Shown in pieces: positions 11,916 through 63,434 of a DNA stretch of 64,000 nucleotides (its first letter is position 1; the number at the start of each line of letters is the position of its first letter). The DNA is from Eledone cirrhosa (lineage: Eukaryota). The position numbers and the translations under genes were made by a program. The stretch spans positions 171,244,001 through 171,308,000 of the forward strand of contig OZ024741.1 in the NCBI GenBank assembly GCA_964016885.1. Reading direction: 5' to 3'. Below the pieces are notes generated by a model, which saw nothing but the letters and a program-made list of their open reading frames with translations, searched no databases and was not told the origin of the DNA.

Positions 11916-12056
11916 ATATATTTATTAAAATAACAGATTAAAGTTTAAGCAAAGAATCGCTGCTTTCACCCTTAACGGGATCTTCAGAAGATCCCGTTAA
12001 GGGTGAAATCAGCGATTCTTTGCTTAAACTTTAATCTGTTATTCTAATAAATATAT
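11916..12056. repeat. Palindrome of two head-to-head PLE tail fragments (family D), axis at 11986 inside the HHR core
   Basis: gggatcttc-a-gaagatccc; arms match 37471-37532 and 39201-39268. Confidence 0.85.
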
Positions 12057-12061
12057 ATATA

Positions 12062-12256
12062 TGTGTTTGTGTCTATATTGTATCTGTATTGTTGACCATT
12101 AGTCAGTCAAGGGCAACATGGAGGACCGAATAAATTAAATTAACCGATATAAAAGACACAGAAGCAAAATGCGAAAACCAACCAAACAGTGAGTGTGTTC
12201 TGTTATTAATTCTGGCAATATTACACAAATATGACCCCTCCCCAAGTATAACAATA
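12062..12256 (+). mobile_element. PLE pseudo-LTR 3' fragment (family A2)
   Basis: Ends atgacccctcccaagtataacaat+(AT)n; homologous to 13003-13178, 57720-57876 and 62369-62560. Confidence 0.75.
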
Positions 12257-12380
12257 TATATATATATATAGAGAGATATAGATACAAACTATGCAAGAGT
12301 TGAGTAATCCATTACAAAATGTATGAATTCCAAACGCTGAAAATAAATAACAATAAACAATACTATGAATAATTAGTAAA

Positions 12381-12572
12381 TAATTGTTTCTACATTTGGC
12401 ACAAGGTCAGCAATTATCCCAGTGTATTACTGGTACTTTATTTTATCGACCCCGTAAGGATGAAAGGCAAAGTTAACCTCGGCGGGATTTGAACTCAGTT
12501 CGTAAAGGGACGTAACTGTGCTGTAAAGCACGGCGTCCGACGCTCTACCGATACTGCCAATCCACCGCCCTT
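12381..12572 (-). mobile_element. Full-length tRNA-derived SINE with 18-bp TSD
   Basis: A box TGGCAGTATCGG and B box GTTCAAATCC on minus; direct repeat gaataattagtaaataat at 12367-12384 and 12581-12598. Confidence 0.9.
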
Positions 12573-13002
12573 ATAATTAGGAATAATTAGTAAATAATAT
12601 CGGGTAGAATACCCCTATGGACGGAAACAGTAATTGCTGAACACTTTTCCGCCGGCCGTATGGGGTATCCTATTGAATTTTCTAAGTTAATATTTATGCC
12701 AATCGATTATTATCACATTTTTCGGCGTTTTGGATTCCACCATATTTTAATATGTATATATATATATGGTACGGATCTAGCTGTCGAAACGGCCGGAGCT
12801 CAGTCATCGGGGTTCTGACACTTATCCCATATATATATAAATATACTATACTTACATTCATATATATATATATATATATATGGGGGGGGGGGGGAGATTC
12901 AGGACACCGACGGCTGAGCTCCGGCCGTTCGACAACTAGATCCGATATATATATATATATATATATATATATATAGGCACCCTACATTTATGACTGTATA
13001 TA

Positions 13003-13178
13003 TATGTGTTTATATCTATATTATATCTGTATTTTTGAACGTTGGTCAGTCAATGGTAAACATTGAAGACCGAATTAATTAGCTGACATAAAAGATACAG
13101 AAGCGAAAACCAACCAAACAGTGAGTGTGTTCTGTTATTAATTCCGGCAATGTTATTATAACAATATGACCCTCCCCA
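13003..13178 (+). mobile_element. PLE pseudo-LTR 3' fragment (family A2)
   Basis: Homologous to 12062-12256; ends atgaccctcccc+(AT)n. Confidence 0.7.
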
Positions 13179-13263
13179 TATATATATATATATATATATA
13201 TATTATTATATATATATATATATATATATATATATATATATATATATATATATATATATATAT

Positions 13264-59513: not shown

Positions 59514-59553
59514 CCGAGAACAATTGTTTCACCTTCGCGGATCTTCAGCTCGG
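59514..59553 (-). ncRNA. Minimal type I hammerhead
   Basis: Minus: ccgag-CTGAAGA-tccgcgaaggt-GAAAC-aatt-GTT-ctcgg. Confidence 0.85.
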
Positions 59554-61490
59554 GATATATATGGTTATAGGAACAGGAAGGACAACCGTACGAACGCGCA
59601 TGCGCAGAAACTCGGTCACTTCACACAGGCAATAGTAGACTGCGTGCGGGGGGTGTAAGCGAGATAACTGCGAAAGTCCGGAAAGTTTTTTGGTTGAAAA
59701 TAAAATAAAAAAATAAAAAAATAGAATTACAAAGAATCTGTCCGGAGCCTTGTAGTTATGCAATAGATGTTTGGTGTCGTGTGGACAACGTGTGAAAAAG
59801 TCACTCCTTGTGTTTAGGCAATCACTATTTCGTAATCTCTTTAGGATAGTTATTCGTTCGTCAATACATAAGCCACACGTCGGATTTCTCCTTGCGTATG
59901 GCTTGGACTTAGTGATGGATTTCCATTGAATGGAGTACCCTATACTTGAGTCCTTGAGGGACCATACGTGGCTCGCGAGTTTCGTGGATGAACGTCTGTC
60001 CGGGTATCTGAAGGTAGACTGGTGGTTCAGGAAACGCTCCTTGAATCGTCCCTACGCCATGCCCACATAGGATTTGACCTCCTGTGATTCGTTTGGTCGG
60101 TTGGAAGTGACCACAGCTTCATAGATTACGGCTGGTGCGTTGCATTGTTGTTGAAGGGGGCAAGCTTCAGGATAACAGCAAGAGCACACTGGTGGGGTGT
60201 TGCTCCTAGGGCTGCTCGTGATGTGGGCCTTCATGTTCTTAGCGCAGGAGTATCCTAATTTAACTTTGTGTCGGTTAAAGATGGAGCGGTATTTATGACC
60301 TATGGGGAAGTGTCTATCTAAGAGGGCTAGAAATGTTTTTCCTACATTGGTTTTAACGTTGAGTGAGAAGGGAGGAGAGAACCAGATAGTTTGTCTATTG
60401 ATGCGCTTACTTTTTTTAATGGTGTTGTTGCTAGTGGGAGAGTAGGTGATAGGTTGTGAGAAGCCGCTGTTATCCAACGCCGTGTTATAGTAGGGTGCCG
60501 CCCTGTCAAAGATGGCCTTATTAGAAGAGAGGTTTGAGATTCTAGTACTGATATTCTTAACGAAGTTTCTAAAAACAGTGGGAGGGTGACATGAGTCCTT
60601 GTGAATGTAATTGAGTTTCTTGTTTAGCTTATGGAAGGGCCTGTGAGTGTGTGTGCGATGGTCTAAATTAATGTCTAAGAAATCCACGCTAGAGAGGTTG
60701 GTGGCCACTGTTATGCTAAGGCCTAACTCATTGAAGGTAGAAGCTAAGTCTTTTTTAAACCGGTCGAGGTCGTGACCACTTTTATGGCTCGATAAAATTA
60801 GTACATCGTCACGGTATATTCCCGTGTGGAAGTCCGAGAATCTAACACGTAATATGTCTAAGATAAATAGGCCAACCAAGTCACATACGTCAGGACTGTC
60901 AACCGATCCCATGGAGACGTCGAACAGGTCTGAAGATGTAGACTTCTTTGCCCAGGCTACTCCGTCGTTGAAGAGAAAGGTTTTCCGGTAGTGAGCGATG
61001 ATTTCCCTGTCTAAACCATCGACAGTGGTATAAGTGGTAGCGAAGTCCAACGCTTTATTTAACAGGGTCTCTGAGATCGACGGGTAAAAATCGACAATGT
61101 CAAACTGTGTGAACTTCGCTTTTATGGATTTTAAGGAGTTAAACCACTTAATTACGGAGTCGCTGTTCTCCCATTGGGGCAGGTTGGACTTGGTCCTAAT
61201 GTTCTTAACTATGTTTCTAAGTATGGCCTTACTGACTAGTCCCATATCTGTGCGTGCCGGGTTTATTAGTCTGCATGTGGGGTTAGAAGTAAAGTCTACC
61301 TTGTGATCTTTCAGGGTGAGGAACGCCTCTCGCTTAGCTAGAGATTGTAGCTTCTTATCTACCTTAAGGTCGGAGCCGAGTTCCTTGGCTTCTGTATTAA
61401 TGTCGTGGTAGGCCATAGGGTTAGCTTTCTTATATTTAGAAGTAATAGCGTTATGGGCCAGGTGGCGGAAAGTGGTGTTGTCGACTTCGT
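59545..61490 (-). pseudogene. PLE RT + GIY-YIG reading frame with one in-frame TAG (60052-60054)
   Basis: TLKDHK..CRLINP, FDIVDFYPSI, GIYRDD, FLDI; CSCCYPEAC linker; VIYEA..YVGMA*GRFKERFLNH..CGLC..LNTRSD..RCPH continues in frame. Confidence 0.88.
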
Positions 61491-61500
61491 AAATAATGTG

Positions 61501-62208
61501 TTACCGATCGGTTTCACTTCACAAAAGATTGGAGATCCCTAGGGACCTCCAATGGAAAAGTTTAGATCATCAGAAAGCATTTTCCTTTCCTAGGACTAAA
61601 AGTCCCAGGAACGGCGAAATATATTGCCATCTGCCAGCTAGCACAGGTTCGAATGGTGCCGAAAATTTGACCTATGCATGAACCAGTCCGAAGTATAAGC
61701 GGAAGTAAACATAGACGTATTGTCTACCTCACCACTAAAAATAGCAGCTAAATAGAACAACAGATTTGTTCTCTACATAACGGAGAATATTAAAAGACGT
61801 TAATATGCCCACAGGTACTAAGTACCCCTGGAAATATATAGGGTGTCTATGATGCAAGGGTTGTTCTATGGTATTAATTTGACATACCAGAACTATAATA
61901 TTTAGATAAGCAGAACAAGCAAGATTCAAACAATTTTTTTAAATAAATTAAAAAATATAATTTAAATATTTACCTATTCCAATTGCTTTTACCGACGGTT
62001 TCACTTCACAAAAGATTGGAGATCCATAGGGACCTCCAATGGAAAAGTTTAGATCATCAGAAAGCATTTTCCTTTCCTAGGACTAAAAGTCCCAGGAACG
62101 GCAAAATTTATTGCCATCTACCAGCTAACACAGGATCGAACCCTTGTATCATAGACACCCTATATATTTCCAGGGGTACTTAGTACCTGTGGGCATATTA
62201 ACTTCTTT
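61501..62208. mobile_element. ORF-less HHR unit (487-bp period, minus; family F) plus short inverted arm
   Basis: HHRs at 61502-61578 and 61985-62065 (gcttt-CTGATGA..GAAACCG(A)TCGGTA-aaagc); ~62141-62208 is the reverse complement of ~61791-61860. Confidence 0.85.
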
Positions 62209-62368
62209 TATATATATATATATATATATATATATATATATATATATATATATACATATATATATATATATATATATATATATATATATATATATATATA
62301 TATATATATATATATATATATATATATATATATATATATATATATATATATATATATATATATATATA

Positions 62369-62860
62369 TTGTTATACTTGGGGAGGGTCATATTTGCGTA
62401 ATATTGCCAGAATTAATAACAGAACACACTCACTGTTTGGTTGGTTTTCGCTTCTCGCTGTCTTTTATATCTGCGATCTAACTTACTCGGTCCTCAATGT
62501 TGCCATTGACTGAACGACGGTCAAAAATAATACAGATACAATATAGACACAAACACATATATATAGTTTACATAATTTACATAAATCTTTCGTTGCACAT
62601 CTGCAACATCGTTAGTGGTGTTATATATATATTTTTTTTCCTCCTGTTGTGTTGTATGTCTACGCCATTTTTTTTAATTCAGTCTGTCTATATATTTTTT
62701 TTATTTATTTGCTTGTTTGTTTATTTTATTTTGTCTTCTTTGCGCATGCGTTTGCGTGTGTGTATAGTGTTATGTGTGCTGGGTGACTAGTGTGTGTTTA
62801 TGTGCTTGTTGTTATTGTGCTTGTGTATGTATTTATTCATCATATTTTATTTTATTTTAT
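62369..62860 (-). mobile_element. Family A2 pseudo-LTR/3' UTR fragment
   Basis: Diverged reverse complement of ~57410-57876; degenerate HHR CTAACGA-t-gttgca/tgcaac-GAAA at ~62580-62620. Confidence 0.8.
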
Positions 62861-63112
62861 ATATATATACTTTTCCCATCTTGACGTTATAGTCGCATAT
62901 ATGTTATAGAATGCCGTTAGCTTCTTGCTAAAACAATCTCTATACCTCTCATTTATATATATATATATATATATATATATATGTATCTATATATATATAT
63001 GTATATATATATATTTGTATATATATATATGTATATATATATATATATATATATATATATATATATATATATATATATATATATATATATATATATATAT
63101 ATATATATATAA

Positions 63113-63434
63113 AATACGTATTTAAGAAAGCCACAACAATGCAAAGGGGAATCTCGAGGTAGGAAGTGAAATATAGATAGGAAAAACATGTGAAAGTGAA
63201 AATTGAGAGAGACAAAGATGAAAACAAAACAAAGATAGAAGGGTTACCGTATTAGAGATTTAATCCCAATATTTCGGGCTCACGCCCATCAACGGGGGAA
63301 AAGTTCCAAAAGGGGGGAAAACAGGCCAAGCGGAGAAAGCGGAGAAAGTTGTGATGTCGTTAAGACAGGAATGCCGTTATTATAACGGCATTCCTGTCTT
63401 AACGACATCACAACTTTCTCCGCTTGGCCTGTTT
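63113..63434. mobile_element. PLE tail (minus) with degenerate HHR and short inverted arm
   Basis: Minus 63264-63299 tccc-CCGTTGA-t-gggc-gtga-gccc-GAAA-ta-TT-ggga; palindrome axis ~63381. Confidence 0.6.

Follow-up and report, generated by a model that had tools for sequence, protein, structure and literature searches.

The 64,000-nt stretch of the Eledone cirrhosa genome analysed here (hereafter the window) is AT-rich, holds about 64 (TA)n tracts (counted after merging, minimum length 14 nt), and carries several families of what most likely are Penelope-like elements (PLEs) of the Hydra clade, placed by their features rather than by a tree. Most copies form head-to-head pairs, in which two inverted copies (arms) meet at their inner ends and both 3′ ends face outward into (TA)n. 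The main finding is that the two outer ends of such a pair differ in a regular manner, one arm ending at a site designated E1 and the other, after a tail, at a second site, E2. On balance, it is likely that both 3′ ends of a cut (TA)n tract prime the reverse transcriptase (RT), with E1 serving as the start for one end and E2 for its counterpart, and that the template is usually the same RNA or RNA species. The layout, the (TA)n target, and the tail are already known for PLEs and represent a published hallmark; what is added here is the near-absolute E1/E2 rule together with evidence for a shared template, which sharpens the question of how PLEs integrate, acknowledged as open (PMC8557442).

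The two kinds of ends are best described for family B, whose copies show two kinds of termination: (TA)n begins either right at the end of the arm (E1) or past a conserved tail of 66 nt (E2). The distance between E1 and E2 varies from 30 to 173 nt depending on the family, being 66 nt in B and 77 nt in XP, a family with an arm of 58 nt. Rather than foreign DNA, the tail represents a continuation of the unit itself, since in four tandem B loci the upstream partial copy runs unbroken from the arm through the tail into the start of the next unit. One E1 and one E2 end were found in 20 of the 21 same-family B pairs (P = 1e-5 if the ends were independent) and in 30 of the 31 XP pairs, with no E1/E1 pair among the latter (P = 1.5e-8 on the same assumption), while in the window exactly one outer end bears a 30–173-nt overhang in 12/13 same-family structures. 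The rule thus indicates that the two ends are coupled rather than drawn independently. Solo B copies also terminate at E1 or E2, so that both sites work as independent end points. Very short arms are all of the E2 type (two in B; four in XP, namely L044, L062, L063, and L070; and two in the window, 21684-21775 and 26149-26182), the B loci L003 and L004 carrying an inverted tail-only stub of 45–49 nt that faces an E1 end. No E1-type stub occurs among the very short arms of B, XP, and the window, which fits E1 being primed first.

The sequence beside every (TA)n tract of the window was listed reading into the tract, and element ends were found to border most of the 64 tracts. The same termini recur at tracts from the left and from the right (the A-type end six times, the XP tail end three times, and the G end twice), and the ends of B, C, H, and J are also among them; these recurring border sequences are fixed element ends facing (TA)n. 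The original prediction, made from the window sequence, had listed 15 intervals with a head-to-head layout and outward 3′ tails, and this layout is indeed present in 13 of them, nearly all running into (TA)n. According to the window self-comparison, 12 of the 15 intervals are same-family inverted pairs whose arms reach the outer boundaries, and one more (17281-21775) is a two-family structure; the intervals 50533-51455 and 59482-62208 fall outside this group. (TA)n flanks the structures on both sides, except to the right of 42985 (no TA), of 10838 (12 nt only), and of 31860 (see below). The predicted start at 11916 was slightly off, as the TA on this side is reached only after some 30 nt of element tail. 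Sense in the window was assigned from the putative minus-strand RT open reading frames (ORFs) 17698-20004 and 60052-61500 and from hammerhead core motifs found by a pattern search, most copies in the window being non-coding derivatives.

The genome serves as a natural experiment, each family being present in hundreds of young copies that all lie in (TA)n. The search covered the 3.0-Gb genome to which the window belongs (the contig with the window is 416 Mb long). With the final 73 nt of family B as the query, the best 40 of 1032 candidates were scored and 47 matches were obtained, 41 of them identical over all 73 nt, the window's own copy included; seven close pairs among the matches all have the "minus then plus" order. 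The 38 loci behind the 40 other identical matches were extracted, and the reference B copy was mapped on each. Same-family head-to-head pairs occupy 20 loci, a further pair elsewhere in L003 bringing the number of pairs to 21, while an inverted tail-only stub is the partner in two loci (L003, L004). In three loci, a different window family supplies the partner in the form of an inverted 3′ end: an XP arm opposite a B arm in L031 and L036, and a family C arm opposite a B tandem in L035. Three loci (L010, L021, L026) contain an inverted B fragment together with another repeat, and three (L013, L018, L020) are true solos with the 5′ end directly on (TA)n. The remaining loci, L001, L007, L016, L017, L025, L028, and L033, several of which adjoin window repeats, were assigned no orientation and counted neither way.

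The XP query, a 61-nt arm, yielded 39 loci from the best 40 of 762 candidates scored. The XP count does not include L074 (a 22-nt internal fragment), L057 (16 nt before TA), the solos L042, L045, L055, L064, L073, L065, and L067, or the arms at the listing edge in L044, L070, L071, and L076. All 21 B pairs and all 31 XP pairs are head-to-head (P of about 5e-7 and 5e-10, respectively, under random orientation), and no tail-to-tail pair was found among the 38 B or the 39 XP loci; the layout goes far beyond chance.

Partner arms have a recent source in common. In the 21 B pairs, arm divergence ranges from 0 to 9.6% (2–7% in most pairs), and the window arms are 80–99.7% identical in the self-comparison, in line with the earlier remark that the two arms often differ by substitutions. 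The conclusion then drawn, that such arms were copied from different template molecules, finds no support for same-family pairs. Nine long B pairs were compared over the shared terminal 320 nt minus the 73 nt used for selection: partner arms are 3.9% apart vs. 6.7% between loci, a value reached in 0 of 10,000 shuffles, and in 7/9 pairs at least one of the two arms has its partner as nearest neighbour. Of the 98 differences between partner arms, 59 occur in one arm only (private differences) and 30 are common to a single other arm, while 9 fall at sites with both alleles present in at least two other arms. Rare-allele sites in common amount to 2.3 per partner pair vs. 0.44 per random pair. The lengths of partner B arms are correlated (Spearman 0.76) and lie within 25 nt of each other in 12 of the 21 pairs, whereas 100,000 shuffles gave 4.0 such pairs on average and never more than 11.

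The remaining nine B pairs have very unequal arms (e.g., 1982 vs. 1073, 2018 vs. 554, and 1023 vs. 222 nt). An overlap of 1–12 nt is present at 10 of the 21 B junctions, whereas at the other 11 the arms are separated by 7–444 nt, some of this intervening sequence probably being element sequence absent from the window copy. Across the pairs, the outer ends are fixed and the inner ends are variable, as expected for two cDNAs that are each anchored at the 3′ start, which fits priming from both DNA ends.

In the mechanism that we infer, E1 and E2 would be RT start sites comparable to those of the anole element PAc (see below). The first DNA end would start at the internal site E1, leaving the 3′ tail of the RNA free; the second DNA end would start at E2 on the same RNA, and its cDNA would displace the first one. 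If each start site is usable only once, this would explain both the E1/E2 rule and the E2-type stubs. Short homology would next allow the antisense cDNAs to anneal to each other at their 3′ ends, after which either one would serve as the template for finishing its partner, and an inverted repeat would result. Occasionally, the second DNA end might capture the RNA of another family. The earlier suggestion that both ends of a break prime separate cDNAs would thus survive as far as two-ended priming is concerned, but not in its assumption of independent templates, at odds with the E1/E2 coupling. A more far-reaching version, which we put forward only tentatively and hold to be possible rather than probable, is that PLE integration is two-ended by design: a ribonucleoprotein, probably a dimer, would cut both (TA)n strands and start two cDNAs on one RNA molecule, so that the head-to-head structure with a one-sided tail would be the default product, and solos and tail-only stubs would be aborted second arms.

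If the two DNA ends primed on independently drawn template molecules and the cDNAs were joined afterwards, the 2–7% divergence of most arm pairs would be easily understood, as would the other-family partners in L031, L036, and L035 and the XP stub at 21684-21775 that faces element A in the window. Such a process should, however, give E1/E1 and E2/E2 combinations in about half of the pairs, whereas E1/E2 was found in 50/52. The coupling of ends, the common rare alleles in arms that are each other's closest relatives, the predominance of private differences, and the correlated lengths all argue against independently drawn templates, and this reading is considered unlikely. Self-priming, proposed for the rotifer Penelope (PMC3846280) and the only published model of the inverted repeats that was found, implies that a single template snaps back at a palindrome, so that two copies of it are made. 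It would account for same-source arms, for the near-symmetric pairs (12/21), and for the junctions, which are palindromic by construction and some of which lie at palindromic stems of putative hammerheads. Yet it predicts symmetric outer ends, in conflict with the E1/E2 combination in 50/52 pairs, leaves the very unequal arms in 9/21 pairs unaccounted for, and cannot yield tail-only stubs or other-family partners; moreover, solo copies ending at E1 or E2 show that both sites are end points in their own right. Fold-back appears distinctly improbable. Taken together, the fixed outer and variable inner ends, the E1/E2 rule, the signs of a shared template, and the other-family partners speak against both self-priming and independent templates.

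Two successive independent insertions into one (TA)n hot spot would be in keeping with the strong preference for (TA)n, the clustering of insertions, and the existence of true solos (L013, L018, L020). This course of events is very improbable, as no (TA)n remains between the arms, all 52 pairs are head-to-head, their ends are coupled, and partner arms are mutual closest relatives. Short inverted repeats flanked by TA might also be taken for TA-targeting DNA transposons of the foldback or miniature inverted-repeat transposable element (MITE) type, or for assembly artefacts. The arms, however, are the 3′ ends of RT-encoding elements (31651-31799 matches 59482-59554, the 3′ end of an RT-bearing copy), the inner junctions vary while the outer ends are fixed, and the tail is one-sided; as for artefacts, they are excluded by more than 50 loci with 2–7% arm decay. 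This possibility is barely worth entertaining, and the transposon, artefact, and successive-insertion readings were all rejected on this evidence.

Several observations weigh against priming of both DNA ends at E1 and E2 on a shared template. The rule has exceptions: the second pair in L003, the lone one in B, consists of an E1 end facing a 14-nt tail stub; L059 (XP) is E2/E2; and the window structure 37471-39268 has no overhang. One RNA molecule and two RNAs of one source locus are indistinguishable here, and near-equal arms in 12/21 pairs would fit fold-back too. Arm pairs free of differences, which likewise suit fold-back, are those in L019 and L030, and these have 66 and 34 nt in common only, so that identity of long arms at birth is not shown. 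Other-family partners are few (three clear loci and one in the window) and could in principle be successive insertions. Only in A and B was sense derived from ORFs; in the non-coding families, it relies on hammerhead-like cores that Rfam does not detect. Finally, the B and XP samples consist of the best-scoring, youngest copies and are not random draws.

PLEs in general have been described as partial tandems with pseudo-long terminal repeats (pLTRs), with a frequent inverted 5′-truncated copy at the 5′ end, a bias towards microsatellites, and a 30–40-bp tail that often occurs at one end only, the tandem and inverted structures being ascribed to "still undefined features" of the transposition cycle (Craig et al. 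2021, PMC8557442). The statement of the original prediction that inverted pseudo-LTRs are typical of Penelope is therefore correct (PMC8557442, PMC3846280). In Penelope of Adineta vaga, head-to-head is the commonest inverted arrangement and a 31-bp tail is optional on one inverted pLTR; its authors favour self-priming on an antisense template (Arkhipova et al. 2013, PMC3846280). The E. cirrhosa structures resemble these rotifer elements in the head-to-head layout, the one-sided tail, and the palindromes at the inverted junction, but the rotifer insertions show target-site duplications (PMC3846280), which are illegible in (TA)n. Animal non-LTR retrozymes, non-autonomous PLE sequences (bioRxiv 10.64898/2026.07.22.740005), are similar to the short non-coding families with hammerhead-like cores in the window; most copies here, in contrast, are inverted pairs rather than long tandem arrays.

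In human L1 twin priming, the second target DNA end primes on the element RNA, and the cDNAs are joined by short homology. The outcome there is an inversion whose parts cover different stretches of the RNA, whereas here both arms repeat the same 3′ region from two fixed sites.

Another parallel is provided by PAc, a Poseidon-type PLE from Anolis, which in vitro cleaves and extends both DNA strands and for which a dimer has been predicted (PMC11167929). In PAc, the tail is bounded by two RT start sites, and the start site is the same on either strand (PMC11167929). The likeness to the present elements thus includes two start sites flanking a tail, cutting and extension of both strands, an AT-rich target, and initiation internal to the RNA 3′ end. 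The differences are that PAc belongs to another clade, has no microsatellite target, and shows no strand difference in the start site; the parts of the PAc account used here do not link two-strand extension to inverted repeats or to the use of one site each (PMC11167929). An explicit two-ended priming model for the PLE inverted repeats was not found in the literature searched, which extends to parts of papers, and two older key papers may discuss one. Our observations fit the in vitro two-strand extension from two start sites and provide concrete predictions for the existing in vitro system.

Two further features of the B termini should be mentioned. The last bases before both B ends contain a GTGT(N1-2)CCAC motif, the sequence being ...GTGTAACCACTTCT at E1 and ...GTGTTCCACCACT at E2 (L006, L012; window 59482 and 31860), which may be compared with the AC-rich stem-loop start site of PAc. 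In addition, a (CT)n or (TC)n run is found between the element end (...CTTCT or ...GTTCTC) and (TA)n in 3 of the 38 B loci (L013, L015, and L030, in each case right behind E1) and at 31857-31881 of the window, where the tail ending at 31860 is followed by (TC)n and then (TA)n; such runs just past the element end look like reiterative copying at the start site.

Hydra-clade PLEs are short, have a C-terminal endonuclease, are inserted into (TA)n in almost all families, and universally carry hammerheads (PMC8557442). A similar set of features is recognizable here: a putative RT followed by a candidate C-terminal GIY-YIG-like endonuclease, a short unit, the (TA)n target, a hammerhead-like core in the terminal repeat, pLTRs, an inverted 5′-truncated copy, and a tail at one end (PMC8557442), although the tails measure 30–173 nt vs. 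the described 30–40 bp. The B unit measures 2580 nt between successive ends in L017, which is under 3 kb, and (TA)n insertion was found both in the window and in the genome loci. The partial tandem with pLTRs is represented by family A in the window (17279-17598 and 21364-21683 are 97.8% identical) and by four B loci (L007, L017, L024, L035), and the inverted 5′-truncated copy at the 5′ side by 12 window intervals and by the 21 B and 31 XP pairs.

Pfam RVT_1 matched the ORFs 17698-20004(-) and 60052-61500(-) with 22.6 and 23.4 bits, under the 29.6-bit cut-off. The 768-amino acid ORF of family A has 117 homologues, those with names being called RT-domain proteins; the best one is from octopus (68% identity), and echinoderm (sea-cucumber) proteins are present among them along with mollusc ones. 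In the B copy, VIY...YVG-type motifs were recognized by eye downstream of the RT, interrupted by one stop codon, with no Cys between them, so that a CCHH motif would be lacking in the putative GIY-YIG core of this one copy. None of the Rfam hammerhead models matched in the window at the gathering score or at E<=1, but the pattern search of the window detected CUGANGA...GAAA cores near the element ends, and in the B copy CCGAG/CUCGG is legible as helix I flanking the core, together with a loop, AAUU, that is palindromic. The short non-coding families with such cores (XP, C, H, J, G, and F) look PLE-derived and PLE-mobilised. A tRNA origin of the B tail was also considered and dropped, as ARAGORN found no tRNA or tRNA-like gene.

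The window structures are listed in Table 1. The single case of a two-family structure deserves a comment: the window self-comparison gave no inverted self-match within 17281-21775, and the XP-family stub at its right side, with inverted matches of 90–93% to 13998-14110 and 42723-42876, is the putative heterologous head-to-head partner of element A.

Table 1. Structures and features of PLE families in the E. cirrhosa window (positions in the window; arm sense and end type as assigned in the text)
Feature	Position	Strand	Details
Family F, two tandem units	5634-9937	-	direct repeat 5632-7085 = 8483-9937, 99.5%
Family F, one-sided tail, E2 end	5634-5780	-	147 nt; overhang 147 nt left, 0 right
Family F, hammerhead-like cores	5845-5886, 8696-8737, 10733-10774	-, -, +	pattern search
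Family F, inverted 5′-truncated arm, E1 end	9940-10838	+	899 nt; 99.7% inverted match to 5781-6679
Family C pair	11886-12056		tail 11886-11915 (about 30 nt), minus arm 11916-11986, plus arm 11987-12056; 141-nt palindrome, 96.5%; overhang 30 nt left, 0 right; tail recurs after C arm in L012
Family H pair	13264-13757		tail 13264-13436 (173 nt), minus arm 13437-13597, plus arm 13601-13757; same terminus borders (TA)n in L019
Family XP pair	14027-14220		tail 14027-14103 (77 nt, E2), minus arm 14104-14161, plus arm 14162-14220 (E1)
Family G, tandem units and inverted arm	16083-17204		minus-sense tandem units 16083-17044 with left tail of about 122 nt; inverted 160-nt arm 17045-17204 (E1); direct repeat 16078-16505 = 16619-17046; 16746-16923 and 16205-16260 inverted vs. 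17045-17204
Family A, complete element; direct pLTRs, ORFs with putative RT	17281-21683	-	3′ end at 17281 facing (TA)n
XP-family stub, almost only tail	21684-21775	+	92 nt; opposite orientation at 5′ side of element A
Family G, tail stub and tandem units	26149-26960		inverted 34-nt tail stub 26149-26182 (E2), 100% inverted to 26516-26549; plus-sense tandem units ending at E1 (26960); direct repeat 26243-26437 = 26767-26967; hammerhead-like cores at 26304(+) and 26828(+)
Family B pair	31651-31860		minus arm 31651-31723 (E1), plus arm 31727-31799, tail 31800-31860 (E2 side)
Family C, short and long arms	37471-39268		short minus arm of about 60-74 nt at left, long plus-sense arm ending at 39268; 37473-37532 inverted vs. 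39202-39261, 98.3%; overhangs 2 and 7 nt, no clear tail; remainder presumably long arm
Old PLE pair	39455-41365		minus arm 39455-39840, plus arm 40918-41313, 52-nt right overhang; 80% inverted match
GIY-YIG-like ORF inside old PLE pair	40274-40804	+	18.1 bits, under 22.6-bit cut-off
Tandem with inverted arm	41573-42727		minus-sense tandem 41573-42301 (E1 left), plus arm 42302-42646, 81-nt tail to 42727
Second XP pair	42778-42985		tail 42778-42857, two arms 42858-42985; right flank not (TA)n
Complex inverted structure with internal (TA)n	50533-51455		arms 50541-50760 vs. 51098-51317, 92.8%
Family J pair	58186-58690		arms 58188-58389 and 58400-58601 (98.6%), 89-nt right tail 58602-58690; tail terminus also present at 41546
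Family B, autonomous copy	59482-61500	-	3′ end (E1) at 59482 directly on (TA)n
B copy, putative RT ORF	60052-61500	-	
B copy, C-terminal endonuclease-like ORF	59545-60051	-	downstream of RT
B copy, hammerhead-like core	59527-59548	-	same sense as ORF, about 40 nt from 3′ end
Different repeat adjoining 5′ end of B copy	61501-62208		matches of genomic B copies begin at reference position 706-714; 61501-61653 = 61989-62140; 61793-61862 inverted to 62139-62208

Apart from these structures, the window contains a second RT-bearing element at 28832-30913(+), which ends at about 31622, is 75–77% identical to family A, and bears an exact 138-nt tandem duplication at 30785-31063. The (TA)n tract that it faces with an A-type terminus at 31622 is the one that also receives the left end of the B pair 31651-31860. 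A tandem repeat with a 591-nt period is located at 3818-5567 (3818-4976 and 4409-5567 are 99.9% identical) and runs up to the (TA)n tract 5567-5638; no hammerhead core was detected in this repeat by the pattern search. A SINE-like (short interspersed element-like) repeat of about 120–190 nt is present in at least 12 copies in the window with 83–97% identity, including those at 693-1020, 12359-12575, 14851-15078, 25029-25241, 25370-25527, 27317-27424, 32196-32398, 33215-33409, 46918-47103, and 55223-55409. One fixed end of this repeat adjoins (TA)n at 709, 863, 25048, and 32215, and the repeat may use the same mobilising machinery.

Head-to-head PLE structures are also of practical concern, as they break assemblies, confuse repeat annotation, and give false microRNA-like matches. 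In the window, 132 weak Rfam matches were obtained, nearly all of them to microRNA models on (TA)n/(TG)n hairpins or on PLE palindromes. For instance, at 13731-13822, two family H ends face each other across a 42-nt (TA)n and produce a false mir-4716 match (58.5 bits, under the gathering score), and an 89-nt near-perfect palindrome (98.9%) at 63337-63425 gives a false MIR8643 match.

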